Shown here piece after piece: positions 1-51,445 of a stretch of DNA of 51,445 nucleotides. The notes beneath the pieces are model-generated. The model was not told the DNA's origin, made no database searches, and was given only the letters and a program-made list of their open reading frames with translations. A program made the translations under genes and the position numbers. Position 1 is the first letter of the stretch. Every line of letters starts with the position of its first letter. Source of the DNA: an uncultured Bacteroidales bacterium (GTDB taxonomy: Bacteria; Bacteroidota; Bacteroidia; Bacteroidales; UBA7960); the NCBI GenBank assembly GCA_964410015.1, contig CAYPFV010000003.1, forward strand, positions 1 through 51,445, written 5' to 3'.

Positions 1-52
1 GACTGTTGGCGAGCTCCATCTGACCGAATTAATCAAATTATAAACAGATGAA
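1..52 (+). repeat. Modular dispersed repeat copy (hairpin module ending in 18-bp core), truncated by window start
   Basis: GACTGTTGGCGAGCTCCATCTGACCGAATTAATCAAATTATAAACAGATGAA closely matches 37983-38034 and 21093-21131; CATCTG...CAGATG stem. Confidence 0.9.
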
Positions 53-608
53 AAATTATTTATTTGCACTTCTTATCTCTTCACTGGTTTGCCCAATATT
101 TGCACAAACCGTTGAAAATACAAATGTTTACCCCTCCAACCTCGAAGAAAACATGTACTTTGAGGAATTCGATGCCGAGACAAATGTTATTCATGGATTA
201 AACTTTATGGTATTATCTGATGGTAATGATTCTCAGTATATTACACCTGGTTTTGAGGTGAGTCTGTATTTACTGCCCGAAGGCAGTTCGAGTGCAGATG
301 ATCTTATTATTGTAAAAAAATATCCTCTCGACGGTATTTATCATTTTGGAAGTCATGAATTTGAGAACGAAACGGTAAATCTTGAGGAAGTTGCTGGTAT
401 TTCGCCGGGTAATTACCGGTTGGGTGTATGGGTTAATTCTGCTTCCGACTTTGCGGAAGATGAAAATGACAACGCAACACTGTTCCGCCAGGGCGTTACT
501 ATTACCAAAGCCACCTCAGGAGTCTCATCTGAATCTTCCAAATCTACATGGGATGATGACGATGATGATGACTGGGATTATGATGACTGGGACGATGATG
601 ATTGGTAA
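48..608 (+). CDS. Secreted hypothetical protein with acidic Asp/Trp C-terminal tail
   Basis: 186-aa ORF; signal-peptide-like N-terminus (MKNYLFALLISSLVCPIFA-Q); ends WDDDDDDDWDYDDWDDDDW. Confidence 0.75.
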   Translation: MKNYLFALLISSLVCPIFAQTVENTNVYPSNLEENMYFEEFDAETNVIHGLNFMVLSDGNDSQYITPGFEVSLYLLPEGSSSADDLIIVKKYPLDGIYHFGSHEFENETVNLEEVAGISPGNYRLGVWVNSASDFAEDENDNATLFRQGVTITKATSGVSSESSKSTWDDDDDDDWDYDDWDDDDW

Positions 609-644
609 AAAACAATCAAACAATTTTATTATTCGTAAGTTTAG

Positions 645-685
645 AGACTGAGCGAAACAGAATGAAATGTTTCTCTCAGTCTTTC
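645..685 (+). terminator. Stem-loop, probable intrinsic terminator or leader hairpin
   Basis: AGACTGAGCGAAACA...TGTTTCTCTCAGTCT followed by a short T-rich stretch. Confidence 0.5.
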
Positions 686-723
686 TTAATCAATTTTATT
701 TTTTCACTTAAAAACCGAACAGG

Positions 724-7523: not shown

Positions 7524-7529
7524 GCTAAA

Positions 7530-7636
7530 TAGTGCTTGCCAGAAAACACTTATTTTTTGTCTTTGATAAGAAATCGCCAAAGACAAGGCTCTGTAAGTTT
7601 ATGAATATAAGGAGATTGCATTTCGTAAATGACTCA
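7530..7636 (+). repeat. About 105-bp repeat module abutting the 18-bp core, homologous to 51052-51161
   Basis: Shared blocks TAGTG, TGTCTTTGATAA, AAATCG.CAAAG.CAAGGCT, TAAGGAG, GTAAATGACT in the same order, both followed by TTCATCTGTTTATAATTT. Confidence 0.8.
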
Positions 7637-7891
7637 TTCATCTGTTTATAATTTTATTAAATAGGTCAGATGGAGCTCGCCAAAACTCCGGTTTTGTATT
7701 TTTGTCCATGCTACGAATTATAATCATCCGTGTGTGTGTCAATATTATTGTCATGGCTCGGTTCATCTGTTTATAATTTTATTAAATAGGTCAGATGGAG
7801 CTCGCCAAAACTCCGGTTTTGTGTATTTTAACCGTGCTACGAAATCTAATCATCCGTGTAAGTGTCAATAATATTGTCATGGCACGGTTCA
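7637..7891 (-). repeat. Two tandem 125/126-bp units of the modular dispersed repeat
   Basis: TTCATCTGTTTATAATTTTATTAAATAGGTCAGATGGAGCTCGCCAAAACTCCGGTTTTGT identical at 7637 and 7762; second halves diverged; reverse complement matches 21006-21131. Confidence 0.92.
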
Positions 7892-7959
7892 AAAATGAGA
7901 ATAATGCAGTATTTGGCATTTTCCTGCAAAGGCTAAATAAATCTTTGTTTTACATTGAT

Positions 7960-8090
7960 GAGTCCACTCCGAAAACAAGTTTTCGGGAAATCTGTGTTCA
8001 TTTTTCGTTTTTAAAACCACTGATAATCAATATTTAGCATCTGTGAAAATCTGTGTAATCTGTGGATAATTAACTTTTCAGAGTTGACCC
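7960..8090. mobile_element. 131-bp MITE, copy 1
   Basis: Imperfect terminal inverted repeats GAGTCCACTCCGAAAA / TTTTCAGAGTTGACCC; flanked by direct repeat ATTGAT (7954-7959, 8091-8096); inverted homolog at 13760-13890. Confidence 0.85.
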
Positions 8091-8134
8091 ATTGATTTAT
8101 TTTTAATTCTATGTGTCCATCAGTATTCAAACCA

Positions 8135-8186
8135 ATAAACAGAGGTTTGAAAATAATATTGACACACAAGCGGGGGATTTTAATTT
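8135..8186 (+). repeat. Degenerate copy of the modular repeat
   Basis: ATAAACAGA...AATAATATTGACACACAAGCGGGGGATTTTAATTT resembles core plus ACAATAATATTGACACACACACGGATGATTATAATT with an internal deletion. Confidence 0.45.
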
Positions 8187-8615
8187 ATCATACTGGTTAT
8201 AATAACACAGCCAATATTTTTGGCGAAGTTATTTAGGTATAAAACGAGAACCGGTCTGAGTAACGCATAAAAATATGAATGTACAAGGCGTTTTTTATTG
8301 ACGCGTCATAAATTATGATGATAGCATGGTTGATTATTTTTATCCGGTAAAACTATAAAATGATATTAATGCAAGGATTAAAAAAAAAGTGAACAGGGAT
8401 GCCAATAGATCAATTGGTTTTATTTGTACTGATGAAGATGTTTGTGGTTGTCAAATAAAGAAAAATTTATTTTTTTTGTCATGTAATTTTATTTTTAGGC
8501 GGCGAAATAAATCTTTTGTTTGTAATTTTATGTAAACTTTTATTAGATTCCATATGTTTAAAGTGTTACAAATCATTTAAATAATTGCGGAAAAAACAAA
8601 GTAATCAAACGAATG

Positions 8616-19527: not shown

Positions 19528-20643
19528 TTATTTCTTTGGATAGTATTCATCTATCAGAAACAGGTAGTTTTTCGGAAGATGATGTGCATAAATGTTTTCC
19601 TGATCATCCGGAAAAATTTTATCATATTCACCAGTAGGTTTCAAAACAATGGTATGTCCGGCGCGGGAATAATTTATAGTTTCATAATATTCGGGGGGTA
19701 CAAATTCGGGCATAAAATTCTTAATTTGTTTTGAAATGGCTCTGCCCAGATATTTTTCATAGTTTTTTCTTGTTCTTTCCGCAGGTTTGTATAATCTTTT
19801 GTAAGCATGCATCAAATAAAGGCGTCTTGGAAATTTTTGACTTCTGATACCCTTGCGGGCGTTTTTGAAAGGGTTTATTTCATTAAAATTATAGATCGTT
19901 TGAACAGTTAGAGGTGTTTCAGGCACCCAATCAGCTGTATTTACCACGTTAAATGCCCATCCATTGTGGTTCATCATTTCGTAATCATAGGCAAAAAACA
20001 AATTGCCGGGTTTGGGAGCAGCACTGCTGTATGTCTTAAACCGGATACCAGAGGGTAACAATTCCTGCTTTTGCAAATGTTGAAGATGTGCGTTGAGCAG
20101 AAAACTGATGGCACCCCCCTGACTGTGCCCGGTGATCATAAAATGACGTGTTCCGGTTTGATAAAGCGAATCAATTCGCGGCAAAATATCAATGGAAAGG
20201 CTTGCCATTCCGATCATCCATCCGGTATGAACTGCCGCCTTAGGGTTTTCTGCTACTTTATAATTGATCGTATTATCCCGCGACAATACGAGCGATCCCT
20301 CGGCAGGTATCATCGCTACATAATAATTGGCCAGCCAACTTTCTGTTTTTGGAGTGGTGCCCCTGATACTGATCACTGCCACACCATCATCCCGCATCCA
20401 TAGTTCCCATAAATGATCCAGCCCCATAGGTTCCGAACGGTAAATTTTTTTGTAATCTGCCGGATGTGTAAGTCCGGAAAGCTTTGTACTATCGAGATTA
20501 TTTGTGAATTCTGCAATCAGTAGCATATCACGATACTCAGTACTATTGAAACCAGACTTAAGTTTCTGACCGAAAACAGTTGACGGGAATAAGATGATGG
20601 TAAAGATGGAAATAGAATAAAAAAATAAAATCTTCGTGTTCAT
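19528..20643 (-). CDS. Secreted lipase, class 3 family
   Basis: ISIRGT, VHTGW, TGHSQGG nucleophile elbow, DWVP; signal peptide from ATG at 20643. Confidence 0.85.
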   Translation of the reverse strand: MNTKILFFYSISIFTIILFPSTVFGQKLKSGFNSTEYRDMLLIAEFTNNLDSTKLSGLTHPADYKKIYRSEPMGLDHLWELWMRDDGVAVISIRGTTPKTESWLANYYVAMIPAEGSLVLSRDNTINYKVAENPKAAVHTGWMIGMASLSIDILPRIDSLYQTGTRHFMITGHSQGGAISFLLNAHLQHLQKQELLPSGIRFKTYSSAAPKPGNLFFAYDYEMMNHNGWAFNVVNTADWVPETPLTVQTIYNFNEINPFKNARKGIRSQKFPRRLYLMHAYKRLYKPAERTRKNYEKYLGRAISKQIKNFMPEFVPPEYYETINYSRAGHTIVLKPTGEYDKIFPDDQENIYAHHLPKNYLFLIDEYYPKK

Positions 20644-21003
20644 CTCAACAAAATTAAAAGGGGTGCGTATTTTATTTTGTGTCAAAAGTATGGTTTTTCA
20701 ATCTTAATCAAAATGTTTTTTTGAAAAATATTTCATATACCAGGATAATGTATTTTTGTAGTACATTTCAATATCCAAAACTTTCAAAGACTACTATTCA
20801 TTACTTTTTTCGATTGAGATTTTTATCATAAATGTTTTGTTCATATTTGAAAAGTTGAAGATTTTCTTTCAATTATTTGCAAATGAAGGGAGGTGACTTA
20901 TAAGAGTAAAAGTTAATAATAGGTATATGTGGTCATTTTTACATATTGAAATATTGTTTTGACAATCCTGGTTTTCGATTTGCCTGAATGTTTTTTTTAT
21001 TTA

Positions 21004-21221
21004 TGCACCGAGCCATGACAAAAATTTTGACACACACACGCGAATGATTAGATTTCGCAGCATAGTAAAAAAAAAACCGGAGTTTTGGTGAGCTCCATCT
21101 GACCGATTTAATCAAATTATGAACAGATGAAACATCCATGATTAAAGATTAAACACACACGAGGATGATTAAATTGGATGTTCCATCTGACCGAATTAAT
21201 CAAATTATAAACAGATGAAAC
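21004..21221 (+). repeat. Array of the modular dispersed repeat (two cores)
   Basis: Cores at 21114-21131 (one mismatch) and 21202-21219; CCATGA...ACACACACG...ATGATTA modules at about 21006-21050 and 21132-21171. Confidence 0.92.
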
Positions 21222-21256
21222 AATTCTGTATTTTTGAAAAAATTTAAAATAAACAC

Positions 21257-21814: not shown

Positions 21815-21917
21815 GAAGATCCCGGCAGAAAAACAAGTTATTTTTATCTATATTGGCTGGCGATTGTAAAATGTAGTAAAAGAATTATTGATTGTTGTTC
21901 TGTTTGTTTTTCAATGA

Positions 21918-22820: not shown

Positions 22821-22935
22821 TTTGGTGGAAATTGTCAGGGTTTTGATTTTGCCAGGTAATTACAATAGATACCAGTTTAGGTTTATTTCATCATGCAAAT
22901 ACCGTTTATAAATCTATCTGTTTCAGATGCTTTGA

Positions 22936-29215: not shown

Positions 29216-29232
29216 AAGGAGCAAAATTAGAT

Positions 29233-29260
29233 AAAAAACCCCGGGCATTTCGCCCGGGGT
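29233..29260 (-). terminator. Intrinsic terminator of the nqr operon
   Basis: Minus strand ACCCCGGGC-GAAAT-GCCCGGGGTTTTTT. Confidence 0.85.
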
Positions 29261-29269
29261 CGTATTATT

Positions 29270-30532: not shown

Positions 30533-30557
30533 GATAAATTTTCTTTAAGTTAATAAA

Positions 30558-31175
30558 TTAAAGTTCAATTCCCATGAAACTCATAAAGGCAATTCCCATC
30601 AGTCCGGTAATGATATAAGTAATACCAAGTCCACGCAGCGGAGCAGGAACATTTGAATATCTGATTTTTTCGCGAATAGCAGCAATACCGGCAATGGCTA
30701 TAAACCAACCAACTCCGCTTCCTAAACCAAAGGAAACGGCTTCACCCAAGTTGGCATAGTTTCTCTCTTGCATAAATAGTGAGCCTCCCAGTATAGCACA
30801 GTTTACAGCAATAAGCGGCAGAAAGATACCAAGCGAACTATATAATGTAGGACTGAATTTTTCAATAATCATTTCTACCAACTGAACCATAGCCGCAATA
30901 ATGGCAATAAACATGATGAAGGTGAGAAAACTAAGATCAACATTTGCAAACTGCGGCGATATCCAGGTTAAGGCACCACTGCCCAAAATAAAGTTTTCAA
31001 GCAGATAGTTAACAGGCACAGTTATTCCTAGAACGAAAATCACTGCCAGACCAAGCCCTACTGATGTTTCAACAGTTCGCGATACAGCCAGATAAGAACA
31101 CATGCCTAAAAAGTAGGCAAAAATCATGTTGTCAATAAAAATTGATTTTACGAAAATATTTAAATACTCTTCCAT
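30558..31175 (-). CDS. nqrE: Na+-NQR subunit E
   Basis: [23 protein letters not shown]. Confidence 0.95.
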
Positions 31176-31228
31176 TATAATTCTTTTTTGATTTATATTG
31201 AATTGGTTTGTTTATAGTGTTGATGATC

Positions 31229-31891
31229 TTAACTTACATCCACAAGTTCGCGGTTTTTATACCTTTGAATCCATATGATTACTCCCACAGTAATGAGAGC
31301 CATAGGTGGAAGAATCATCAAACCATTATCAACATATCCGATATCATACATAAAATTGGGTACTACCTGGTATCCCATTAATTTTCCTGAACCTAACAAT
31401 TCTCTTATGGCTGCCACGAGCAACAGAATGGATCCATATCCGGCAGCATTACCAATACCATCTAAAAAAGAAGGCCATACTTTATTGCTCAAAGCAAAAG
31501 CTTCCAAACGACCCATGATGATACAGTTGGTAATGATCAAGCCTACAAAAACTGATAGTTGCCGGCTTACATCATAAACAAAGGCTTTTAATACCTGGTC
31601 TACAAGGATTACCAGCGAGGCAATTACCGTTAATTGTACAATAATTCTGATACGTGGGGGTATTCCATGACGGAGCAGCGAAATAATAACGTTGGAAAGT
31701 CCCATTACAGCTACGACTGAAATGGCCATAACCAATGAAGCTTTTAACTGCACTGTAATAGCCAGAACAGAGCAGATTCCCAGCACCTGCACAGTGATAG
31801 GATTGTCTTTACCTATGGGGTCGCTGAGTAACTTTTTATTCTTTGCTGATAATAGTTTTTCTTTGGGTTTATTTTCTTGTGTATCACTCAT
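31229..31891 (-). CDS. nqrD: Na+-NQR subunit D
   Basis: NPITVQVLGICS, GLIITNCIIMGRLEAFA. Confidence 0.95.
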   Translation of the reverse strand: MSDTQENKPKEKLLSAKNKKLLSDPIGKDNPITVQVLGICSVLAITVQLKASLVMAISVVAVMGLSNVIISLLRHGIPPRIRIIVQLTVIASLVILVDQVLKAFVYDVSRQLSVFVGLIITNCIIMGRLEAFALSNKVWPSFLDGIGNAAGYGSILLLVAAIRELLGSGKLMGYQVVPNFMYDIGYVDNGLMILPPMALITVGVIIWIQRYKNRELVDVS

Positions 31892-32586
31892 AGCATGGAT
31901 ATCTTTTGTTTTTTAAAATAGGGTTCATAAACTTTTAAACCATTTCTTAGCATATCTGTAACACCGTTAGATGTAATAGTTCCGCCACTGATTCCATCAA
32001 CGGCATAAGGATCATCATCGGGTGCATCCCCTTTTACAACTACCGGTGGATTAAAATTTCCCTGCTCATCAAATATTCTTTTACCTGTAAATTGTACTTC
32101 AAATGGTCTATCGCCAATTTCAGCACCCAGTCCGGGGGTTTCGCTTGCATGGTCAAAATTAGCACCTGCGATGGTTGTCAGGTCGCCTCTAAAACTGAGA
32201 TAACCCCATATCGGGCCCCACAAGCCTGTACCTCTTACGGGTACTATGTAAAAATTTTCACCTTCTACATCTGCAATGTATATCGGTAGTTTTCTTTGAT
32301 CGGCCGGCTTTCGGTTTTCTTCTTTCAGGTCTATCTCAAAAGCATCGCCTTCAACTTCTTCTCCCTTGTTATTCAATACTTTGGTAGTTGTAATGTAGCG
32401 ATCAAACATTTCAATTGCTTCTGATTTACTGGCATCGATTTCGATGGTGGAAAGGATGTTTTGCATCTTTTCTATCTGCATATTTTTTTGTTGCATAGGA
32501 TTTAGTAATGTTGATGTAGCGGACAACACAATTGCCACAACAATCACCATTACAGATGCATACATAAACACATATTTATTACTCAT
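31888..32586 (-). CDS. nqrC: Na+-NQR subunit C
   Basis: GLWGPIWG, ETPGLGAEI, FMN attachment motif DGISGGTITS. Confidence 0.95.
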   Translation of the reverse strand: MSNKYVFMYASVMVIVVAIVLSATSTLLNPMQQKNMQIEKMQNILSTIEIDASKSEAIEMFDRYITTTKVLNNKGEEVEGDAFEIDLKEENRKPADQRKLPIYIADVEGENFYIVPVRGTGLWGPIWGYLSFRGDLTTIAGANFDHASETPGLGAEIGDRPFEVQFTGKRIFDEQGNFNPPVVVKGDAPDDDPYAVDGISGGTITSNGVTDMLRNGLKVYEPYFKKQKISML

Positions 32587-32597
32587 TTCGGTTAATT

Positions 32598-33785
32598 TTA
32601 AGTAGTGATTTTTGTATTGCTTTGTAGTTTTATATTTTGCATGCGTCGCAACCGTCTTTTTATATTGCTTTGCACTACATAATGATCGATAAGCGGAGCA
32701 AACACATTCATAAACAAGATGGCAAGCATCATTCCTTCAGGATAAGCAGGGTTTACTACCCTGATAAGAACAGTAAGTATGCCTATGAGGGCACCATAAA
32801 TATATTTTCCCATTTCCGTTTGCGAAGCTGAAACCGGATCGGTGGCCATATATACTGCACCAAAGGCAAATCCGCCCATAATCAGATGCTTGTAAGCAGG
32901 CATGGCCATAAAATCATTAATGGCAAAGGCATTTAATATCAACCCCATAAACATACCACCTGCAAATACAGATGCCATTATTTTCAGACTCCCCACACCT
33001 GTGATGATAAGAATGGCTGCGCCCAAAAGTATTGCCACCATAGAGGTTTCACCAATCGAACCTGGTATAAATCCCATAAACATATCATAATCGCTGAACA
33101 ATGTACCTTCTCCTGATGCCATAATGGCCAGGGCAGTTGCGCCTGAAAATCCATCAACGAGTTGTTGCCCTTCCTGCAGTGTTGTATCTATCCAGACCTC
33201 ACCTGAGAGATAAGAAGGATAGGCGAAAAACAGAAATGCACGCGCCAGCAGAGCAGGGTTTAGAATGTTCATACCAGTTCCGCCAAATACCTCTTTACCA
33301 ATTACAACTGCAAAGATAGTGGCAACTGCTACCATCCATAGCGGGATGGTTACGGGTAAAACCAATGGTATCAACATACCCGATACCAGGAATCCTTCAT
33401 TTACTTCGTGGTCTTTTACTGTAGCGAAAATAAATTCTACTACCAATCCTGAAATGTAACTTACAATGACAATGGGTAGAACCTTTATGAGCCCGAAAAC
33501 CACCTGATCCATAAAAGAAACTTCAAGTCCCAATGCTTTGTAATGCTGAAAACCTACATTCCAGATACCAAAAAGAAGGGTGGGTATCAGGGCAATGATT
33601 ACATGCACCATGGTACGTTTCATATCCATAGCATCTCTTATATGGGCGCCTTTTCTGGTAACATCTCCGCGCACATACAGAAATGTTTCGAAGGCTTCGA
33701 AGGTACGGTAGAGTTTCTCAAATCGTCCACCCTTTTCAAAATTGGGTTTTACTTTTTCTTCAACAAAATTTATCAATGCTTTCAA
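32598..33785 (-). CDS. nqrB: Na+-NQR subunit B
   Basis: KEVFGGTGMN, FMN site SGAT, GSIGETS, MATDPVS; TTG start. Confidence 0.95.
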   Translation of the reverse strand: MKALINFVEEKVKPNFEKGGRFEKLYRTFEAFETFLYVRGDVTRKGAHIRDAMDMKRTMVHVIIALIPTLLFGIWNVGFQHYKALGLEVSFMDQVVFGLIKVLPIVIVSYISGLVVEFIFATVKDHEVNEGFLVSGMLIPLVLPVTIPLWMVAVATIFAVVIGKEVFGGTGMNILNPALLARAFLFFAYPSYLSGEVWIDTTLQEGQQLVDGFSGATALAIMASGEGTLFSDYDMFMGFIPGSIGETSMVAILLGAAILIITGVGSLKIMASVFAGGMFMGLILNAFAINDFMAMPAYKHLIMGGFAFGAVYMATDPVSASQTEMGKYIYGALIGILTVLIRVVNPAYPEGMMLAILFMNVFAPLIDHYVVQSNIKRRLRRMQNIKLQSNTKITT

Positions 33786-33856
33786 TTTCTAATGCTTTTA
33801 AAGTTTATCAATGCTTTTGCATTTGTAATGGGTTATCAATAATGATGCGAAACAGA

Positions 33857-35218
33857 TCACGCAAATTCTTGTCTCATGGTGTCGAGTCCCTCTCTGATAC
33901 ATTCCTGTATCTCTATTTTTGAAGGACAAACATATTCACACAGGGCAAAGTCTTCGGGTGCTACTTCATAAATACCTAATTTTTCCATCATATCAATATC
34001 GTTAATCATGATAGATTTTAATAATTGCATTGGCATTATATCCATGGGTAATACTTTTTCATACAATCCTGTAATCACAAATGGTCTTTCCCCACTTCTG
34101 ATATTTGTATTGTGTCGAAATTTTTGACCAGGGATGAGAGATGAGGGAAAGGTAGGGGACACACTGAATTTGTCGAAATTGGGTGCTATCCATCCAAACA
34201 GTTCAGGTTGATCGCCTTCAGGAAGGATTGTTATCATATCGTCATAAAACCTCAGGAAATCATTTTCTTCCAGTTTGGTGCCCGTAAGTGCTGTTCCGCT
34301 GATAAAACGTGGATGCAGACCTTCCTCTTTTCTTACATTGTTTTGAACAATATCTTTTACAGAAGCACCATTTGTAACATTGTAGTATCTGGGATTTAAA
34401 ACCTCTGATCCGGCAAGGGCAATTTTTTTCCGGGCATCATAAATACCTTTTGAAAATAACCGACCGAGCATAATAAGGTGTTGTATGCCAATATACCATA
34501 CCAGGTCTCCTTTATTAATGGGTGAGATATGATGAATCTGAATTCCTACATTTCCTGATGGATGAGGTCCTTTAAAAGAGTGGATTTTCACATTTTCAGC
34601 ATTAATAAATGCTTTATTTTTTGTCTTTTCAGCATGTATTCCCAGGTGTACTTCTCCTTCTGTTAGTTGGGCGAGCACATCCAATCCTTTTTGAAAATCA
34701 TCTTCCTGTCCATTGACTATAAAATCCATGTCAGGTGCTAATGGAGAAGAGTCGAAGGCAGAAACAAAAATGGCTTTGGGTTTTTCATCAGGATTGGCAA
34801 CAATAGAATAAGGTCTTTGGCGAACAGAGGGCCACAATCCACTTTGAAGAATTTTTTCCACAATTTTTTCTCTGCTTAATAAACCAGGTTCTGCTGCACC
34901 AAAATCCAGATAACTATCCTCAGGGTCTGCTTCGATCACTATCCGCAAAATCCGTCTTTTTTCTCCCCTGACCAAAATCTTAAATGTACCACTCACAGGA
35001 GAGGTGTAAATGATTTTTTCATTGTACTTATCGAAAAACAAAGGGGAACCTGCTTTTACTTTTTCTCCTTCTTTGACCATCATTTTTGGTGTTAGTCCAT
35101 GAAAATCAATAGGAAAAACAGCATAATGAGAAGAACGGGGGGCATCATTAAGAATTTTTTCTGCCTCGCCTTTCAGAGGAATATTCAACCCTTTTTTAAT
35201 CTTGATTACCTTTGACAT
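33857..35218 (-). CDS. nqrA: Na+-NQR subunit A
   Basis: IKIKKGLNIPLKG, GPHPSGNVG, EDFALCEYVCPSK. Confidence 0.95.
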   Translation of the reverse strand: MSKVIKIKKGLNIPLKGEAEKILNDAPRSSHYAVFPIDFHGLTPKMMVKEGEKVKAGSPLFFDKYNEKIIYTSPVSGTFKILVRGEKRRILRIVIEADPEDSYLDFGAAEPGLLSREKIVEKILQSGLWPSVRQRPYSIVANPDEKPKAIFVSAFDSSPLAPDMDFIVNGQEDDFQKGLDVLAQLTEGEVHLGIHAEKTKNKAFINAENVKIHSFKGPHPSGNVGIQIHHISPINKGDLVWYIGIQHLIMLGRLFSKGIYDARKKIALAGSEVLNPRYYNVTNGASVKDIVQNNVRKEEGLHPRFISGTALTGTKLEENDFLRFYDDMITILPEGDQPELFGWIAPNFDKFSVSPTFPSSLIPGQKFRHNTNIRSGERPFVITGLYEKVLPMDIMPMQLLKSIMINDIDMMEKLGIYEVAPEDFALCEYVCPSKIEIQECIREGLDTMRQEFA

Positions 35219-35344
35219 TTCTTTTTTACTTATATAAAATTATTTTTAGAGCAAATTTATGGATATTTTTACATCTTTGAAATATTTTTACCTTCTGAAT
35301 TTCGTTTAATTTATTGAAATATAAACATAATTAACTATGTATAA

Positions 35345-36784
35345 GTGATGAAGCATTATCAACATTATTTCTTTAATAACTTTCTTTTACTTTTAGGAAA
35401 AAAAACAACTCAAGGCATCCCACTGAATGTCATCCTGTTGTTTTTTGTTTTTTTTATGATTACAAATCCGGGAAAAACCGGCGATAATGGAAAATTTTCT
35501 TCATTAAGTAAAGAGAATGAATCAGAGCATGAAAACATTCTAAATCAACCGCCAGATGAGGATTATTACCAAAAGAACTTTATGAAATATGGTGATTTTG
35601 TTTATCAAAACAACATAAAAAGTGTTTTGTTTAACCGTAAAAACTGGGAATTATCACCACCAATAATAGAGATGAATTCTTTAGAAAAATTGGTTTTACG
35701 TTTTGATGATATGGATGCGGACTTTAAAAATTATGCTTATACCATCATACATTGCAATGCCATGTGGAAACCCTCCGATCTTCAGCAATATGAGTATATT
35801 GAGGGGTTTTATGAAGATCGGATTGAAGATTACAGTTTTTCGGTAAACACCAGGATGCCTTATACGCATTATCATCTTGAGATTCCAAATCCGAATATGA
35901 AACCACTTATCAGTGGAAATTATATATTGAAAATTTTCATTGATGGAGACCCCGATGATGTGGTGCTTACCCAAAGATTTATGGTTTTTGAAAGGCATCT
36001 TACCGCTAATGCCGAAGTGAAACAGGCAACCAATCTGAATCAGAGAAAAACTCATCAGGAAATTGATTTTACGATCAATACTTCGGGCTACAGTGTTTCA
36101 AATCCTTACCGCGACCTTAGGGTGGTGATTACACAAAACGGAAGATGGGATAATGCTATTTTTGATCTTGAACCCCGGTTGGTGCAGGGAAATGAATTGA
36201 TCTATGATTACGAGAATGAAAACTTATTCAGGGGTGTCAACGAATTCAGAAGCTTCGATATAAAAAGTTTACGATACCGAAGTCTGAATGTTCAAAGTAT
36301 CACCACAGGTAGAGAAGGGTGGTTGGTAGAACTTTCAGAAGATCAAAGCAGGCAATTTCTTCAATATACCAGCAGAGAAGATATAAACGGGCAATTTCTG
36401 ATCAAAACAGAGGATTACGATAATGATTTCTTGGAAAGCGATTATGCATATGTTGATTTTTTTCTTGAACTTTCCAAACCCCTTGCTGATGGTAATGTTT
36501 ATGTAATGGGTGATCTTACAAGCTGGAATTTTACTGATCTCAATAAAATGAAATACAATTATCAGCGCTCGGGCTATGAGCTTTCCTTGTTACTCAAGCA
36601 AGGATTTTATGATTATATGTATGGTTTTCTTGAAGATGGAGAAGAAACGGCAGACCTAACCAAATTTGAAGGGAGCCATTCTTTTACTGAAAACAATTAT
36701 TCTATCTACATTTACCACCGGAAGCCAGGAGATTTTTTCGATAGTTTAGTGGGTGTTTCGCATATTAATTCTTCAATCAGGTAG
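35345..36784 (+). CDS. DUF5103-like protein (putative type IX secretion plug protein)
   Basis: YTIIHCNAMW, YTHYHL, SGNYIL, QNGRWDNA, NEFRSFD, LKQGFYDY, TENNY motifs; start uncertain. Confidence 0.7.
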   Translation: MMKHYQHYFFNNFLLLLGKKTTQGIPLNVILLFFVFFMITNPGKTGDNGKFSSLSKENESEHENILNQPPDEDYYQKNFMKYGDFVYQNNIKSVLFNRKNWELSPPIIEMNSLEKLVLRFDDMDADFKNYAYTIIHCNAMWKPSDLQQYEYIEGFYEDRIEDYSFSVNTRMPYTHYHLEIPNPNMKPLISGNYILKIFIDGDPDDVVLTQRFMVFERHLTANAEVKQATNLNQRKTHQEIDFTINTSGYSVSNPYRDLRVVITQNGRWDNAIFDLEPRLVQGNELIYDYENENLFRGVNEFRSFDIKSLRYRSLNVQSITTGREGWLVELSEDQSRQFLQYTSREDINGQFLIKTEDYDNDFLESDYAYVDFFLELSKPLADGNVYVMGDLTSWNFTDLNKMKYNYQRSGYELSLLLKQGFYDYMYGFLEDGEETADLTKFEGSHSFTENNYSIYIYHRKPGDFFDSLVGVSHINSSIR

Positions 36785-36822
36785 TATCTTCTAATATCTA
36801 AAAAAAAAATCATCTCAGGCTT

Positions 36823-37338
36823 TTATAAAAATTTTCTCGCCTCTGCTTTTACAAAATCAAGTGCTTTGCGTGTTGATAGTTTTGTAATGCTCAATTCAAG
36901 AACCGCTTTGCTGAGATCGGTAGCGGATGCTTTTTCATCTAACTTTCCTGCCGAAATATTTATTTGCTGTATCAATTCCTCCTTGGCATTTTTCACCTTA
37001 TCCCATGCCTCGGGTGAGATGTAAAGCTGTTGCGACAAGTTATGGTCGTATTCTTCCCGAATGGTTTGAATTAATAATTGCTGAAACTGTTTGACCGTCA
37101 GATTGGGTTTGTTGATACGCATGATCAGATTTCCGGGAGATATTCTCTCCAGGAAAAGTACAGTTCTTTCATAAGCCTGTAACCGAACCGGGAATGATAA
37201 TTTTTGTTTTTCCTGTAAAAGAGTAAAACGACGGTTTTCGTTTTCTTTTTTGAAAAATTCTTTCAGGATCATCCATGCTGTGATAAAAACCACAACAGAA
37301 GGTATAGTAAATTGAAGGGTTTTGAAAATTGTTTCCAT
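36823..37338 (-). CDS. Conserved Bacteroidota membrane-anchored hypothetical protein
   Basis: N-terminal TM helix; RLQAYER...LERISP and EYDHNLSQQLYIS motifs. Confidence 0.75.
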   Translation of the reverse strand: METIFKTLQFTIPSVVVFITAWMILKEFFKKENENRRFTLLQEKQKLSFPVRLQAYERTVLFLERISPGNLIMRINKPNLTVKQFQQLLIQTIREEYDHNLSQQLYISPEAWDKVKNAKEELIQQINISAGKLDEKASATDLSKAVLELSITKLSTRKALDFVKAEARKFL

Positions 37339-37534
37339 GACTTTTTGGGGTAAAGTTAAAAGTAATAACGATCATTTCTCCTCATGCATTGCAAATGTTT
37401 ACAAATTATTTTGTGTAGCACAAAACAAGTATTGTAGATCAGTACTATTTGCTTGAAAGTGAAAAGAAAAATAAAAAATTAAAAAAAACAATTTTTCCCG
37501 AATTTTTGTCAGACACTTTTCTGACAATATGTTT

Positions 37535-37632
37535 GATGAACCGAACCATGATCTTATTATTGACAAACACACGGATGATTGTAATTTCTCAAAACAGCAA
37601 AAAGTAAAAAAAACAAATTTTTGTCACGCTCT
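37535..37632 (+). repeat. Degenerate copy of the modular repeat
   Basis: GATGAACCGAACCATGATCTTATTATTGACAAACACACGGATGATTGTAATT matches the CCATGA...ACACACGGATGATT module. Confidence 0.7.
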
Positions 37633-37908
37633 TTTGTTTATTCCACTTTTTTGAGCATTCAAAGTCGTCAGACGAGTAAAAGTATGTATAGAGATCAATA
37701 CCTGGATTTTTCTAACCCCGGATTTCTTTCAATTGAACCATTTCGTTGATCAGATGGTTTGAATTTATTTGCCGGATATGATTTTAAGGTTTTTGCTATA
37801 TCAATGATTATCAAATGATCAATTTTTTATCAGGTATATTTCATATATTTGCCGTCCGAAAAGCCTTGTCAGTTTTTATCATAATAAAACTGGAATTTTG
37901 AAGTATGG

Positions 37909-38109
37909 TGAACCGAGCCATGACAAAAATTTTGACACACACGCACATGATTATAATGCGCGGCATGTAAAGCATGCAGTCAGACTGTTAGCGAGCTCCA
38001 TCTGACCTATTTAATCAAATTATAAACAGATGAAACCTCCATGATTGGCTTAAAACACACACGAGCATGATTATTGGCCAAAGAGCAAAGCGCGTAGCGC
38101 TGACATTAT
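37909..38109 (+). repeat. Array of the modular dispersed repeat
   Basis: TGAACCGAGCCATGACAAAAATTTTGACACAC, core at 38017-38034, second module, then GCAAAGCGCGTAGCGCTGACATTAT identical to the reverse complement of 51391-51415. Confidence 0.92.
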
Positions 38110-38160
38110 GGTAGAAATCTTATTATCTCATTGAAATACATCCTATAAATTAAAAAATAA

Positions 38161-39351
38161 ATGACTGTGAAACTATCGGAAAGAATTACGAATATGGCAG
38201 AATCGGAAACCATTGCCATGTCAAGAAAAAGCAGGGAGTTAACCTCAAAAGGATATGATGTGATTAATCTGAGTTTGGGAGAACCTGATTTTTTCACACC
38301 TGAAGAAATAAAATCCGCTGCCAAAGATGCTATCGATAAAAATTTCTCTTTCTATACCGCTGTAAATGGATATCAGGAATTGAGAATTGCAATTTCCAAA
38401 AAATTAAAAAGAGATAATCAACTGGATTATTCACCTGATGATATTGTTGTAAGTACGGGTGCCAAACAGGCGTTGATGAATGCGGTTTTGTGTCTTGTAA
38501 ATCCTGGCGATGAGGTAATTATTCCTGTTCCTTTCTGGGTTAGTTATGTTCAAATGGTAACTTTTGCTGAGGGCAAACCACATTTTCTGGAAACGGGTAT
38601 TGGGCAAGATTTTAAAATTACACCTGAGCAACTGGAGGCAGCCATCAGCCAAAAAACAAAGGTTTTCATTTTTTCCAGCCCTTGCAATCCGTCCGGTTCA
38701 CTGTATACCAAAAAAGAGCTTGAAGCCCTGGCGCAGGTGTTTAAAAAGTATCCACATGTTTATGTTATATCTGATGAGATTTATGAGTTGATCAATTTTA
38801 GTGGAAATCATGAAAGCATTGCACAATTTAGTTACATAAAGGACCGGGTGGTTATTATCAATGGAGTTTCAAAAGGTTTTGCCATGACCGGATGGCGATT
38901 AGGGTATATGGCAGCACACCCTGCTTTGGCAAAAGCAGCCACTAAGTTGCAGGGTCAATTTACCTCGGCCACCTGTTCTATTACACAAAAAGCAGCCGAA
39001 AAAGCAATGGAGATGAAACCCTCTTTGGAAATGCTCAACAAATTCAGGGAAAGAAGAGATCTTATCCTTGATTTGATAAAAGATATACCCGGCATTAAAA
39101 CCAATGTTCCTCAGGGGGCATTTTATATTTTTCCGGAGGTGAGTTACTATTTTGGAAAATCTGATGGGAAAAACGTTATTAAAAATGCAGGAGATTTGTC
39201 TATGTATCTGCTGAACAATGCCCATGTAGCTGTTGTGCCTGGAAATGCTTTTGGCGCTCCGGGTTGTATAAGAATATCCTATGCCACTTCAAATGATTTG
39301 ATCACTGAGGCAGTGCAAAGGATTAAGAAAGCACTGAAATTGCTCCAATAG
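38161..39351 (+). CDS. aspC: PLP-dependent aminotransferase class I/II (aspartate aminotransferase-like)
   Basis: LSLGEPDF, GAKQAL, PCNPSG, SDEIY, GVSKGFAMTGWRLGY, RISYA. Confidence 0.88.
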   Translation: MTVKLSERITNMAESETIAMSRKSRELTSKGYDVINLSLGEPDFFTPEEIKSAAKDAIDKNFSFYTAVNGYQELRIAISKKLKRDNQLDYSPDDIVVSTGAKQALMNAVLCLVNPGDEVIIPVPFWVSYVQMVTFAEGKPHFLETGIGQDFKITPEQLEAAISQKTKVFIFSSPCNPSGSLYTKKELEALAQVFKKYPHVYVISDEIYELINFSGNHESIAQFSYIKDRVVIINGVSKGFAMTGWRLGYMAAHPALAKAATKLQGQFTSATCSITQKAAEKAMEMKPSLEMLNKFRERRDLILDLIKDIPGIKTNVPQGAFYIFPEVSYYFGKSDGKNVIKNAGDLSMYLLNNAHVAVVPGNAFGAPGCIRISYATSNDLITEAVQRIKKALKLLQ

Positions 39352-39629
39352 TGCCAGTATGAAAACAATAAATTCATGATTTTTTTAATCATCCTATAAT
39401 AATTGAATTAAATTGGTATGATGCAACCCCCATTTCACTGATTACTAAATTATTATTATGTTTTTGTGTAATAACACATGGAGGTTTTATCATGGCAATC
39501 ATGAACAACCAGGCAAATTTTCACATTTGAATCTCACGATTTTTATATTTGCTGCCTGCTCTCATTCGCAGATAGAAAAAATGAAATTAATTACTCATAT
39601 TCAATAGTCAATTAAGAAATTACACATAT

Positions 39630-49468: not shown

Positions 49469-50240
49469 AAAAATACAAAAAGAAGGTATGTGTAGTGAAA
49501 AAATTACTCAATAAACAAAACCATTTTTTTTCGATAAAATTATATGATCCCAATGATTTTTTGTTTAAATGGTATTTTTCAGATTAAGTTCTTTATGGTT
49601 TTAAAGATACAAGAAATATCATCGATGCCTTAAGAGATTATCATTTTTCCCTTTCTTTCATTTCATTCATGGACAAACTGGTTTAAATATATTGATTCGA
49701 GGTTATCCTGAGTATTATGGTTTTTAATGCTTCAAGAATCACTTAACATTCCCCCGGTAAATTCAATAGTGGCATTTAAATCTGTAGGTTAGAATCAATG
49801 TTTATTTACCGGCACTACTGAATTACTTCATTACAATGAAGGTAACGAACTGGAAATTCTGAACAAAATTCAATCCGGTTTAAATTCACAAAAAAAAGAA
49901 TAGTTTTTCCGATCCTGTGCTTTTATTCCCTTTATGGAATTTATTCAATCTGATGCAAAGATTTGTTTTTTTCAGATACAAACATGGCAGAATGTTTTCT
50001 GGCAGATGCCAGGCAAAAGGTTGTCAAAGGTGTTTCTATGATTTTTCACATGAGTTTAATGAGTTTAATGAGGTTTTTTTGTAATTCAGTGTAAAATAGT
50101 GAATGATGCATTTGGTTTCAAGTCAGCGTAAAAAAAGTTGCCATTACGGACTGCTCAAAGATTACCTGGGGAAATGGTTCTTCAGTTTACATTTAATGGA
50201 TATGGATAAGGAGTATTGTTTTGTTTAAACCAGAGACAGG

Positions 50241-50915
50241 TTAATCTTTTCTTTTAAAATCACCGTCTTTCCATGCTTTAAAAAATTTAGCCCAGGCAAA
50301 AGGGTCAAAGATACGCATGGGTGGGCGCTGCCCGGCATAGTAAAGTCTTTGAGTTTGCTGGTTGTTCATATTTCTGAATGCAGAGTAACCGTCAAGGGGC
50401 ATTTTTTCCAATCTTTCACGCATCTCTTCTCTTTCGAGGTTTCGCATGGCGCGGTCATAATCATCATCTGGTATTTTGGTGTTAAGAAAAGCATAGCGAA
50501 ACTGTTCGCGCGTTGGCCATGGGTATATAACAGTTTCCGGAAGGTTAATGGTGTCTCGTGTCATCAACTGCACGGCAGAGTATCTTTGGGAGGAAAGAGT
50601 ATCAGGTACAACATAATTGATTTCCTTAAAACCTACGGCAGTAAATCTCAGTGTATCCAGTTCGCGCACCGCAATGGAGAAAAATCCCTGAAAGTCGGTT
50701 ATGGTGCCCCGACGGGTATTTTTTACCCATATATTGGTGAAGGGAACGGGTTGCAGACTATCACCTGTAACCACCAGCCCACTGAATTGAACCACTTTTC
50801 GTTTTTCGGGTTTGGGTTCGGGAGTATCTCTACCATAAAGTGAGTAACCCATTGCCAAAATAAGCAAAACACCCAAAAAACGAAAAAAAGAGTATTGCTG
50901 AATTGAAGTAATCAT
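50241..50915 (-). CDS. Secreted carboxypeptidase-regulatory-like domain protein
   Basis: Signal peptide, GTITDFQGFFSI, DTLRFTAVGF, LPETVIYP. Confidence 0.78.
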   Translation of the reverse strand: MITSIQQYSFFRFLGVLLILAMGYSLYGRDTPEPKPEKRKVVQFSGLVVTGDSLQPVPFTNIWVKNTRRGTITDFQGFFSIAVRELDTLRFTAVGFKEINYVVPDTLSSQRYSAVQLMTRDTINLPETVIYPWPTREQFRYAFLNTKIPDDDYDRAMRNLEREEMRERLEKMPLDGYSAFRNMNNQQTQRLYYAGQRPPMRIFDPFAWAKFFKAWKDGDFKRKD

Positions 50916-51051
50916 TTTTAGTTTTTAATGATTTAGCGTTAAAAATAATGATAATAGAAAAACTACTTTGTTCTTCAACCAGATATTACCCATTTTTAAC
51001 AAATATCTTTATATAATGAGGGTAAGAACCATCAAAAATTGTGCATATAAT

Positions 51052-51445
51052 TAGTGTCAGCAGAAAAACTCTTACTTTTTGTGTCTTTGATAAAAAAATC
51101 GTCAAAGCCAAGGCTTTCCAGATTTTTGAATCTAAGGAGTTTACTTTTTGTAAATGACTGGTTCATCTGTTTATAATTTTCCACAATTAATATTAGAACG
51201 CTGATGACGCTGATTTTACAGATAATCGTTGATAGAAAAAATCTGTGCAAATCCGCTCAATCTGTGTCATCTGCGTTCCATTTATCTTAATCATCCTCGT
51301 GTGCGTTTAAGGATTAATCATGGATGGTTCATCTGTTTATAATTTTCAATGTTTTGATTATGAGGTGCTTATGGCTTTAATGAGGACCCGATAATGTCAG
51401 CGCTACGCGCTTTGCCATTACCCCAATAATCATCCTCGTGTGTGT
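51052..51445 (-). repeat. Composite array of the modular dispersed repeat, truncated by window end
   Basis: Cores at 51162-51179 and 51328-51345; TAATCATCCTCGTGTG at 51288 and 51427; 105-bp module at 51052-51161; palindromic insert at 51196-51278. Confidence 0.9.

Follow-up and report, generated by a model that had tools for sequence, protein, structure and literature searches.

Repeats in the window

The window, which is the whole 51,445-nt stretch of DNA analysed here, contains eight good copies of an 18-mer core, AAATTATAAACAGATGAA. Seven are exact, at 35, 21202, and 38017 on the + strand and at 7637, 7762, 51162, and 51328 on the - strand, and the eighth, at 21114 (+), has one mismatch; a search of the window agrees in this with a first-pass annotation that had listed the same eight positions. 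When a match with three mismatches is included, there are 9 matches versus 0.26 expected and a shuffle maximum of 2 (100 shuffles). This additional match, at 13184, lies within an ORF and looks like chance. All eight good copies are located between long ORFs, as had been claimed, with the exception of copy 35, whose ATG (48-50) is the start of an ORF (48-608) encoding a 186-aa product with a signal-peptide-like N-terminus.

The core is the final 18 bp, and thus the right end, of non-autonomous elements that are 88-166 bp long in the window. These mini elements are composed of three parts: a left end of ~45 bp with the consensus [A/C]C..CCATGA..ACACACACG..ATGATTA, a variable filler, and the right end. 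The filler distinguishes types A, C, and D and an 88-bp minimal form. The mini elements lack terminal inverted repeats and carry ATGAA on either flank, and conservation ends directly after ATGAA.

On the + strand, the contig start cuts a type-A element of which the right-end part remains (1-52, core 35-52). A type-A element of 124 bp (21008-21131; left flank ATGCA; one-mismatch core 21114-21131) is followed head to tail, directly behind its core, by the minimal element of 88 bp (21132-21219), which consists of the left end, a stem ACATCC/GGATGT, the box TCCATCTGACC, and the core (21202-21219). The orthologous spacer of a related genome, G013, lacks both elements at this locus and contains an inverted copy at another point within that spacer. 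Another type-A element, of 122 bp (37913-38034; left flank GGTGAA; core 38017-38034), abuts a type-C element of 131 bp (38035-38165) with a decayed right end, AAATTAAAAAATAAATGAC, whose ATG at 38161 begins an aminotransferase ORF (38161-39351).

On the - strand, two type-A elements form a tandem pair, the first of 126 bp (7762-7887, core 7762-7779) and the second of 125 bp (7637-7761, core 7637-7654). The left flank of the first, TTTTTGAA, is a site within a TIR-MITE, whose 'U' half (7888-7937, -; ..GCCAAATACTGCATTATTCTCATTTTTGAA) and 'B' half (7527-7636, -; GTCATTTAC..GTCTTTG..CAAAGAC..GTTTTCTGGCAAGCACTATTTA) are the host DNA on the two sides of the inserted pair. At the other end of the contig, a type-D element of 166 bp (51162-51327, -; core 51162-51179) has the usual left end and core with a different filler, and a type-C element (51328-51445, -; core 51328-51345) is cut by the contig end. 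Directly behind the core at 51162 comes the B half of a further TIR-MITE copy (51048-51161, -). The 'B' and 'U' segments were considered as modules of the repeat and rejected, being instead halves of an unrelated TIR-MITE split by insertion.

Several parts of the first-pass description can now be reassigned. An upstream element, CCATCTGACC, said usually to precede the core, does so at six of the eight copies and is missing at 51162 and 51328. The downstream 'arm', CCATGA..ACACACACG..ATGATTA, is present after four of the eight cores (7762, 21114, 38017, and 51328), where it belongs to the following element as its left end. Of two suggested degenerate copies, the one near 8135 is confirmed as a decayed copy on the + strand (8117-8195), in which a core-like AAACCAATAAACAGAGGTT is followed by a decayed left end; the other, near 37535, is no decayed core, being a solo decayed left end (CCGAACCATGA..ACAAACACACGGATGATTG; 37541-37605, +) that has a GATGAA left flank and no right end after it.

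Genome-wide distribution and conservation of the core

The genome-wide count that had been proposed gives 278 core copies at no more than 2 mismatches, 146 of them exact, in the 3.09-Mb genome. They are spread over 129 of the 194 contigs, and 137 of the 278 lie within 400 bp of a contig end, indicating that the assembly breaks at the repeat. Across the genome, the distribution of element lengths has its maxima at 120-129 bp (88 elements), 140-169 bp (47), and 190-200 bp (12). What follows a core is the next left end in 66 cases, a B half in 38, a contig end in 23, and unique DNA in 151. Among the genomes of relatives, the 18-mer extends beyond a single genus.

The claim that the core is better conserved than its flanks holds in 90 copies gathered by an internal box, GCGAGCTCCATCTGACC, alone, so that no ascertainment effect enters. 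The core could be located in 88 of these (no more than 4 mismatches), 79 at the standard spacing. For these 79, mean identity is 0.949 within the core, 0.81 in the 9-nt spacer, 0.68 in the 20 nt 5' of the box, and 0.48 in the 15 nt downstream.

Target and insertion sites

The sequence directly before a left end is TGAA, in most cases as part of ATGAA. A regex collection of 217 left flanks, with tandem and U-type flanks excluded, has A in 141, T in 160, G in 144, A in 149, and A in 162 at positions -5 to -1, respectively; G is present at -6 in 97 and A at -7 in 95. Between 25 and 35% of regex-collected left flanks differ from ATGAA at some position, for which decay, off-target insertion, and wrongly called left ends are jointly responsible. 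To the right, A is found at +1 in 108 of the 151 copies with unique DNA after the core. The left flank A-N-ATGAA and the A-rich right flank, seen with mini elements and with full-length copies (described below), indicate a sequence-specific target.

Of 115 solo elements, 43 have ATGAA on either side. Others have ATGAA on the right and a different left flank, namely TTGAA (17), GTGAA (2), ACGAA (2), or CTGAA (1). Since the left flank varies while the right stays ATGAA, the right-hand ATGAA belongs to the element, and the pairing of TTGAA, GTGAA, or ACGAA on the left with ATGAA on the right limits the shared stretch to 3-4 nt at most.

A comparison of empty and filled orthologous sites, as had been proposed, yielded a precise empty site in the congener G009. 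There the site reads ..ggaaaggaaaaaatATGAAcattcttcaactt, while in this genome (G000) and in G013 it is filled, ATGAA[ccgagcc..aaacagATGAA]cattcttcaactt, between two overlapping ABC-transporter genes. Insertion is therefore precise. Contigs from four sequencing runs, compared with positions 20300-39500, showed for the most part joints across repeats, and no clean allele with an empty site was among them. One run-contig joint, present in 2 runs, skips 124 nt (21059 to 21184); its sides are short (27-28 nt), and it was set aside.

The same parts do recur in different combinations, as the first-pass annotation stated. What it described as module shuffling is, however, the head-to-tail and nested insertion of whole small elements, as each right end recreates the target.

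An IS110-family parent

A same-genus genome, G009, contains an element of ~1.5 kb that shares its left and right ends with the mini elements. On the minus strand of contig C524, the order is a type-A core, ACATCCATGATTGGCTTAAAACACACACGAGCATGATTA, an 85-nt leader, a 415-aa ORF, ~190 nt of non-coding DNA, ..AAAAATAAACAGATGAA, and unique DNA. The ORF encodes an IS110-family DEDD transposase (N-terminal RuvC-like domain PF01548, 6.9e-25; C-terminal PF02371, 1e-22), which is 41-45% identical to the products of genes annotated 'IS110 family transposase' and aligns with the IS621 transposase (8wt6) via the C-terminal domain (E 1.9e-12). The first 39 nt of window positions 38035-38075 match the left end of the G009 IS at all but one position (by eye), and at the right end the last 12-13 nt of mini elements and IS are identical. 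Full-length relatives are present on ~36 other contigs from genomes and metagenomes.

These alignments identify the core as the right end of an insertion sequence of the IS110 family. The suggestion of an undescribed system therefore falls, the core being the end of a known IS family, while the suggestion that the core is a recombination site gains support. The ends of the element are not inverted repeats; by eye, AAATTATAAAC in the right end and GATTATAATTT in the left end of type A are inverted matches at 10 of 11 positions, and this pairing is shorter in types C and D. Members of the IS1111 subgroup have subterminal inverted repeats of 7-17 bp and, according to PMC11187229, transposases of 330-350 aa, versus 415 aa here, and transposases of IS110 proper are 395-455 aa long, the class into which the 415-aa parent falls.

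The expectation that no enzyme is encoded beside the copies was correct, and a transposase was not found elsewhere in the assembly either. Neither a PF01548 profile nor a protein search detected an IS110-family transposase in this genome, and the best tblastn E value was 0.41; blastn and regex searches of it found no copy of the parent's RNA. This assembly is 87% complete and breaks at repeats. Among the three genomes with more than 150 copies (G000, G009, and G013), only G009 holds the IS. In G000, the intervals of more than 330 bp that run from a left end to the following core were inspected as candidates for a long autonomous copy, and every one holds ordinary genes between two separate elements; a search of this genome for a reverse transcriptase was also negative.

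A structured RNA and its guides

The 3' non-coding regions of the full-length elements, in 36 distinct versions, share four helices in which 96.9% of cells are paired, versus 34-52% with slid partners. Twelve of 26 pairs have changed on both sides, a number reached by 0 of 500 shuffles. Multiple segments of this RNA co-vary with the DNA that they match. In 33 of 35 copies, one segment is identical to the final 7 nt of the right end (N-N-ATGAA), in four states (AG, AC, AT, and GG), which makes it a left-donor guide. In the two misses, the regex took an earlier ATGAA. Another segment reads like the target flank on the left (A-N-ATGAA) and is thus a left-target guide; it agrees with that flank in 17 of 19 copies at -6 (G 6, T 4, A 7), again in 17 of 19 at -7, and in only 3 of 19 at -8. 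Opposite the target-guide side of the loop lies a U-run that is compatible with the A-rich right flank. In 21 of 22 copies, the 5' side of loop 2 (CACACA-NN) is identical to a motif within the left end, in five states.

This co-variation with right end, left flank, and left-end motif is the pattern of a bridge/seek RNA. The mini elements of this genome fit the G009 RNA as well. They end ..CAGATGAA and prefer the left flank A-G-ATGAA, and both the donor guide and the target guide of G009 read AAGATGAA; their left-end motif is CACACACG in 123 of 150, and the G009 RNA reads CACACACGAC.

A right-donor guide would be expected to match the outermost bases of the left end, but no part of the RNA was found to be antisense to them. 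Published geometry does not predict a same-sense match ~25 nt inside the left end, such as that of CACACA-NN, which could be a third contact between guide and donor. A search of the window with Rfam 15 gave nothing at gathering score, and at the IS locus L007 nothing was obtained at E <=1, no known bridge-RNA model being matched. A hit to snR67 at window positions 20950-21300 (16.9 bits versus a 55-bit threshold, E 0.36) is chance.

Probable origin and proposed mobilisation of the mini elements

Given the observed copy numbers and boundaries, the empty site, a parent with both ends, the RNA structure, and its co-variation with donor and target, the repeats are very probably miniature, transposase-less derivatives of an IS110-family insertion sequence, that is, MITE-like elements without inverted ends. 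MITE-like features found here are both IS ends, no transposase, 278 dispersed copies, and an empty site. Because no transposase was found in this assembly, and because the ends and flanks of the mini elements fit the G009 RNA segments, we infer that the recombinase and RNA of the IS mobilise them in trans.

A complex of recombinase and RNA, supplied in trans, would excise the mini element as a circle, an intermediate whose RE-LE junction has the same sequence as the junctions in tandem arrays. This junction would then recombine with a target A-N-ATGAA-A(n), the crossover spanning 3-4 nt at most within TGAA; a predicted target for a G009-type recombinase and 3' RNA acting on the mini-element RE-LE junction is AGATGAAAAA. 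After insertion, ATGAA would stand on both sides of the insert, so that a gene that is hit would keep its start codon, now supplied by the element, and an upstream gene ending in an overlapping TGA would retain its stop codon. Each right end would recreate the target and allow further elements to insert behind it, and such recreated targets, together with insertion into other repeats, would produce the 'exchangeable modules'. Any effect on expression would be a further consequence predicted from this scheme.

Several observations count against this explanation. Neither transposase nor RNA was found in this assembly, the IS is present in only one of the three high-copy genomes, the run contigs gave no clean empty allele, the expected right-donor guide was not found, and a part of the left flanks differs from ATGAA. 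In addition, a box of the mini elements, TCCAT-N-TGAC, is complementary to the element's own right end and co-varies with it, has no counterpart in the full-length IS, and is not accounted for by the proposed scheme.

Small, abundant, oriented intergenic repeats that lack TIRs and rely on an enzyme in trans are also known from IS200/IS605 PATEs, REPIN/RAYT, and BIMEs, whose defining features (a Y1 gene, subterminal hairpins, or REP palindromes) are absent here. A PATE-like derivative of IS200/IS605, moved as a single strand by a Y1 HUH transposase and inserted 3' of ATGAA, would explain the absence of terminal inverted repeats, the strictly oriented insertion directly behind a fixed 4-5-nt sequence, and, the element end being the target letters, the tandem arrays. 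However, PF01797 (Y1 transposase) and PF07282 (TnpB zinc ribbon) are absent from this genome, and among 41 relatives, strong Y1 matches are absent in G000, G009, and G013 yet present in many genomes with zero copies. Of the Y1 loci in relatives, one is ~900 bp from a copy (G008:C364), and its flanks lack the ends. In addition, the two ends, read by eye, share no tight subterminal hairpin, only long-range stems, and both occur on an element of the IS110 family, with an RNA that co-varies with these ends; this origin is thus very improbable. The hallmark of REP/REPIN-RAYT and BIME systems is 20-40-nt imperfect palindromes, often in inverted pairs, that flank a RAYT gene. The first-pass reading, a BIME/REPIN-like or cassette-type system, here taken as a host-domesticated or integron-like one, agrees with the many intergenic copies, the short conserved site, and the lack of an enzyme gene beside them, but there are no GC-rich REP-type palindromes, no inverted doublets, and no RAYT/Y1 gene in this genome, and the presence of Y1 in relatives is unrelated to copy number. 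The mini elements carry no genes and so are not cassettes; their insertion is precise, with the empty site kept in a congener, and their ends are the ends of an IS, which together leave this reading with hardly any probability.

Two other possibilities concern the ATG of the core. The core might be kept invariant mainly as the host's portable translation-start or 5'-leader (or promoter) module, under selection for expression rather than transposition. In favour of this, a long ORF starts at the core ATG in 31 of 117 copies, the 18-mer is shared among genera, and an A/T-rich stretch of 13 nt leads up to the ATG, as would suit the Shine-Dalgarno-less initiation of Bacteroidota. Yet the core is equally intact before another element (66) or a B half (38), where no gene starts, and those of its bases that do vary change together with the RNA encoded by the IS, a sign that the transposition machinery exerts the selection; a leader module is therefore improbable, if the least so of these alternatives. 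Short ORFs also recur from the core ATG, with frames of 38-44 codons (for example, MNRAMTKFLTHT.. and MNQSFTKSKLLRFKNFESL..) in many copies, as if the units encoded small peptides. This is highly implausible, as the MNQSFTK.. frame is the B half of the TIR-MITE, the MNRAMT.. frame corresponds to the left end of the element that follows, frame length and stop position vary freely among copies, and the ATGA overlap is a consequence of the junction sequence itself. An origin from an IS110-family element remains the preferred explanation.

Comparison with known IS110-family systems

IS110-family elements are described in PMC11208160 as excising as circles, recombining at a short core, and using guide loops for both target and donor strands, and PMC11187229 places the top-strand match 5' of the bottom-strand match in ISs with a downstream non-coding region. 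The parent shares this guide order with such downstream-RNA elements, ISEc11, ISPa11, and ISKpn4 (PMC11187229). It also resembles them (PMC11187229, PMC11208160) in its DEDD + PF02371 transposase, its short left end, its long right non-coding end with a structured RNA, guides for both strands, a site-specific target, a short core repeated at both junctions, and no terminal inverted repeats. Unlike that group, whose targets are given there as REP, attC, or a transposon end, it has the fixed target ATGAA, very often a start codon; its left donor arm ends in ATGAA, and insertion regenerates target and start codon; and the extra same-sense RNA match is present ~25 nt inside the left end. Like the IS621 bridge RNA (PMC11208160; 8wt6), the RNA has two internal loops pairing with target and donor, with the core within every pairing. 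In IS621 (PMC11208160), however, the RNA is in the left end, the guide order is opposite to that of the parent, and a CT core lies within an 11-14-nt target with no relationship to coding sequence.

A similar small element is MITEPpu9 of Pseudomonas putida KT2440, a transposase-less element with the IS110-family ends of ISPpu9, which is found beside the IS and elsewhere in the genome and is thought to be mobile with transposase in trans (PMC12288879). MITEPpu9 has 8 copies, an sRNA gene, and REP targets, versus more than 200 copies per genome in three genomes, lengths down to 88 bp, several fillers, and ATGAA/start-codon targets here. The tandem non-coding units beside IS110 elements in bioRxiv 10.64898/2026.08.14.744561 are similar in their head-to-tail build-up, retained left-donor matches, and lack of target immunity. 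Those arrays were described beside the transposase module, whereas the units here are dispersed over 129 of 194 contigs of an assembly in which no transposase was found.

Start codons

Of the 151 cores that precede unique DNA, 117 carry ATG, and this ATG opens at least 80 codons in 31, versus 0 and 5 of 117 for the other two frames, which served as the null. A genome-wide null (14,723 ATGAA, of which 18% open at least 80 codons) was discarded as unsuitable because it also counts in-frame internal ATGAA. Products begun at the core ATG include pyrH-, RNase HII-, and response-regulator-like N-termini. Among 31 full-length copies followed by unique DNA, 12 lie on an ORF of at least 60 codons or one open to the end of the locus, 10 on short closed frames, and 9 have flanks too short to judge; in 5 further copies, another element follows.

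In the main texts of the papers searched, no IS110-family elements that target or regenerate start codons and no such MITEs in Bacteroidota were found. The IS110 family is itself a known kind; the ATGAA lineage within it and its start-codon habit did not appear in those papers. It is conceivable, although somewhat less than an even bet, that the lineage is specialised for start codons, given that its RNA reads A-N-ATGAA followed by A's and its right end ends in ATGAA. A-N-ATGAA plus A's is how many genes begin, with Met followed by Lys or Asn, and insertion there would be silent for the coding sequence and replace the leader. Such specialisation could explain more than 200 copies per genome by way of 88-166-bp riders, versus the usual few REP-like sites.

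Implications

The repeat that fragments the 3.09-Mb assembly, with half of its copies at contig ends, now has a probable explanation. For the bridge-recombinase field, it would represent a natural case of large-scale mobilisation in trans, with natural donors down to 88 bp and ~36 RNA variants in which single-base changes of the guides go along with those of donor and target. If the CACACA-NN match and the TCCAT-N-TGAC box prove functional, the mini elements would be a natural minimal donor with new rules of donor recognition. Because ATGAA is restored on both sides of the insert, start codons and overlapping stop-start junctions can take up insertions without genes being broken. Since each start-codon insertion swaps the leader of a gene, the family could rewire the expression of dozens of genes per genome.

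Core and boundaries of the repeat

The 18-mer AAATTATAAACAGATGAA, reported in the first-pass annotation at eight places in the window, is present at all of them, seven times exactly and once (at 21114) with one mismatch; 0.26 occurrences are expected by chance. The window is one complete contig (C3). The assembly to which it belongs (3.09 Mb in 194 contigs, 38% G+C, 87% complete) contains 278 copies with at most 2 mismatches, 146 of them exact, distributed over 129 of the 194 contigs. Contig ends are no more than 400 bp away from 137 of the 278, so it is the repeat that breaks the assembly. The claim that the core is better kept than its surroundings also holds: in 79 copies of standard spacing, consensus identity is 94.9% in the core; it falls to 81% in the spacer and to 68% farther upstream, and on the downstream side it is 48%. 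The test set (90 copies, with the core locatable in 88) was gathered through the internal box GCGAGCTCCATCTGACC alone, and thus the conservation is not an artefact of collection.

When copies are aligned on the core, conservation spans about 35 nt upstream and drops at once past ATGAA, indicating that the core is the 3' end of a larger unit. Unique DNA follows the core in 151 of the 278 copies, an arm (CCATGA..ACACACACG..ATGATTA) in 66, a module designated 'B' in 38, and a contig end in 23. Every arm has TGAA, in most cases as ATGAA, immediately before it, even at sites with unique DNA beyond that. When an arm is paired with the core that comes next, the resulting lengths are 120-129 bp (n = 88), 140-169 bp (n = 47), and 190-200 bp (n = 12). 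Together, this pairing and the flanks define a unit composed of a left end (the arm), a filler, and a right end (the core), flanked on either side by ATGAA; an arm behind a core is the left end of the next unit. These transposase-less mini elements fall by filler into types A, C, and D and an 88-bp minimal form (e.g., window 21132-21219), all of which have the same two ends; these ends are not inverted repeats.

The fillers themselves vary. Type C (for example, window 51328-51445 and 38076-38110) contains the unit AAAGGCGCGTAGCGCTGACATTATGGTAGAAATCTAATGCTACCAGTGAA once or twice, the number differing among elements. Some type-A elements carry a 25-nt hairpin (CCCC[G/T]TAAGA[G/A]AAGAACGGGGCAGG) within the box GAGCTCC^ATCTGACC, as at about 3300-3325 of contig C36 (locus L026) and in many type-A copies genome-wide. 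At one site between ABC-transporter genes, the hairpin is present in the window's genome (G000) and absent from its congener G013; it therefore arose in place, or there were two independent insertions.

Insertion at ATGAA and the supply of start codons

The same ABC-transporter site, which lies between two overlapping genes, provides a comparison of empty and filled states. In a second congener, G009, it is empty and reads ..aaaaatATGAAcattcttcaa, while in G000 and G013 it reads ATGAA[ccgagcc..aaacagATGAA]cattcttcaa... The TGA stop of the upstream gene is kept from the left ATGAA copy, and the ATG of the downstream gene is supplied by the element. Neither element at window locus 21008-21219 is present in G013, where another part of that spacer contains a copy in inverted orientation; thus, these insertions post-date the split of the lineages. 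Among 115 solo elements, ATGAA is found on both sides in 43, and another 22 have TTGAA, GTGAA, ACGAA, or CTGAA on the left with ATGAA still on the right. This variation on one side only indicates that the right ATGAA belongs to the element and that no more than 3-4 nt are shared at the crossover.

An ATG is present in 117 of the 151 cores that abut unique DNA, and in 31 of these 117 it opens at least 80 codons, compared with 0 and 5 in the other two frames. Proteins that start in the core begin credibly, for instance with a signal peptide or with a pyrH-, RNase HII-, or response regulator-like N-terminus. Within the window, the ORF at 48-608 takes its start codon from a core, and the aminotransferase ORF at 38161 takes its ATG from a decayed element end. 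The insertions, which swap the leader of such genes, may influence their expression. In G025, a genome from another family of the same order, mini elements of about 90 bp occur (loci L012 and L013), and all 3 examined lie on the ATGAA start of a lipoprotein-like gene (MKRNLL.., MKRIVW.., MKKVVL..).

Tandem arrays and a second, inverted-repeat element

The first-pass annotation proposed a family of exchangeable modules. The same parts do recur, but the modules are whole mini elements in tandem, varied fillers, and nested insertions. Head-to-tail piling follows from the right end (..A-G-ATGAA), which restores the target at every insertion. The module 'B' (TCAGTCATTTAC..GTGTTTTCTTGCTGACACTAATTA) belongs to a separate, TIR-type MITE: in 14 copies it is contiguous with a module 'U' (..GCCAAATACTGCGTTATTCTCGTTTTTGAA), forming an element of about 160 bp with inverted ends (TAATTAGTCTTTGCAAGAAAAC and GTTTTCTTGCTGACACTAATTA). 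In the window this MITE occupies 7527-7636 plus 7888-7937, and 51048-51161. Of 48 'B' and 45 'U' halves genome-wide, 14 'B' have 'U' directly upstream and are intact; in the other 34 'B' copies, mini elements sit at the internal TTTTTGAA and split the MITE. Further small repeats on the minus strand at 7938-8075 and 51225-51290 are clusters of CACAGAT(T/G) words and a hairpin unit, CCGAAAACTTGTTTTCGG, which is found again beside other copies in either orientation (contigs C43 and C114, for example).

A full-length IS110-family parent

Searches of the 87% complete G000 assembly for a reverse transcriptase, TnpB, and transposases of the Y1 and IS110 types were negative, and nowhere in G000 do a left end and a core enclose a long copy of the element. 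With at most 1 mismatch, the 18-mer is present in 28 of 41 related genomes (the reversed control in 0) and exceeds 150 copies in three: G000 (229), G009 (212), and G013 (166). Among the 41 relatives, the occurrence of Y1 genes does not follow these copy numbers. G009 has a single IS110-family gene, and this one is bounded by the ends of the repeat, with a type-A core directly before the IS. This IS begins with a type-C left end, ACATCCATGATTGGCTTAAAACACACACGAGCATGATTA, which by eye differs from window 38035-38073 at a single position. Behind it come an 85-nt leader, a 415-residue ORF, and about 190 nt of non-coding DNA, and the IS ends in ..AAAAATAAACAGATGAA before unique DNA. The ORF contains the PF01548 and PF02371 domains, aligns with the IS621 transposase, and is 41-45% identical to annotated IS110-family transposases.

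Like architecture is found at 8 further genome-contig loci and at about 30 from a metagenome pattern scan. In Carboxylicivirga sp. M1479, mini elements lie head to tail behind IS copies. A contig of metagenome run X4, matched at window 38074, has a type-C left end followed by 30 letters, 28 of which match the G009 leader by eye; thus, a full-length copy appears to be present in a metagenome that contains the organism, though not demonstrably in the same genome. L049, L050, and L051 also contain IS copies, with proteins 67-83% identical. They lie on short contigs from MAGs that carry the labels Kosmotogaceae, Zixiibacteriota, and Heimdallarchaeota, so the IS has spread horizontally or the contigs are mis-binned; at L049, two copies stand head to tail.

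A structured 3' RNA and its guide segments

Four RNA helices are shared by 36 distinct IS copies in the non-coding region 3' of the gene. Within these, 96.9% of cells are paired, versus 34-52% when the partners are slid, and both sides have changed in 12 of 26 pairs (a number reached in 0 of 500 shuffles; co-variation here and below is counted by sequence rather than by independent event). In loop 1, the 5' side, AUUUUUA, could pair with a top-strand A-run to the right of the target; at the mini-element sites, position +1 of the right flank is A in 108 of 151. The 3' side reads NNN-AUGAAA. In 17 of 19 full-length copies (G in 6, T in 4, A in 7), its -6 base is the same as the one in the left flank, and the -7 base agrees in 17 of 19 versus only 3 of 19 for -8. 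Since the -6 base mostly differs from that of the element's own right end, this side matches the target.

Loop 2 corresponds to the element itself. Its 3' side is GAGCAUGA-NN-AUGAAA, and in 33 of 35 copies the element finishes with the same 7 nt, NN-ATGAA, in four states; in the 2 misses, the pattern search had taken an earlier ATGAA. The 5' side, CACACA-NN, has the same sequence, in the same sense, as a motif about 25 nt into the left end, and the two co-vary in 21 of 22 cases, in five states (loci L048-L134). This same-sense match is not predicted by the published bridge-RNA geometry, and a search of the RNA found no guide that is antisense to the bases with which the left end begins. Otherwise, the top strand is matched first and the bottom strand second, 5' to 3', in an RNA that lies behind the gene; this order is that of IS with a downstream non-coding region as described by Siddiquee et al. 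(PMC11187229). Loops that pair with both strands, core included, follow the principle given by Durrant et al. (PMC11208160).

Fit of the mini elements to the G009 RNA

By sequence, the G000 mini elements fit the G009 RNA in three ways. They end in ..CAGATGAA, where the donor guide is AAGAUGAA. Their favoured left flank is A(-7) G(-6) ATGAA (95 and 97 of 217, respectively), where the target guide is also AAGAUGAA. Finally, their left-end motif CACACACG, present in 123 of 150, has its counterpart in the 5' side of loop 2, CACACACGAC. The mini elements would thus be mobilised in trans, presumably through a circular intermediate.

About 30 nt before the end, mini elements carry a box, TCCAT-N-TGAC (as TCCATCTGACC; e.g., window 21176-21190 and 38001-38010, and loci L052, L053, and L055), in place of which full-length IS have ATATGA(A/G). 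The N of the box and the -6 base of the right end (arm CA-N'-ATG) are complementary and co-vary in three states: C/G in G000 and G025, and A/T and G/C in Carboxylicivirga loci. The CATCTG/CAGATG stem noted earlier corresponds to this pairing of box and right end.

Place among known systems

The tests contradict an assignment of the repeats to IS200/IS605 PATEs. IS110-family elements with bridge or seek RNAs are already established. A MITE-like rider with 8 copies, MITEPpu9, is described in one report (PMC12288879), and tandem non-coding units beside IS110 elements in another (bioRxiv 10.64898/2026.08.14.744561). A literature search found no paper on an IS110 lineage with a fixed ATGAA/start-codon target regenerated by its own end, or on such IS110 amplification to hundreds of copies per genome. 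The parts that deserve experiment are the start-codon logic and the two co-variations, that of CACACA-NN and that of TCCAT-N-TGAC.
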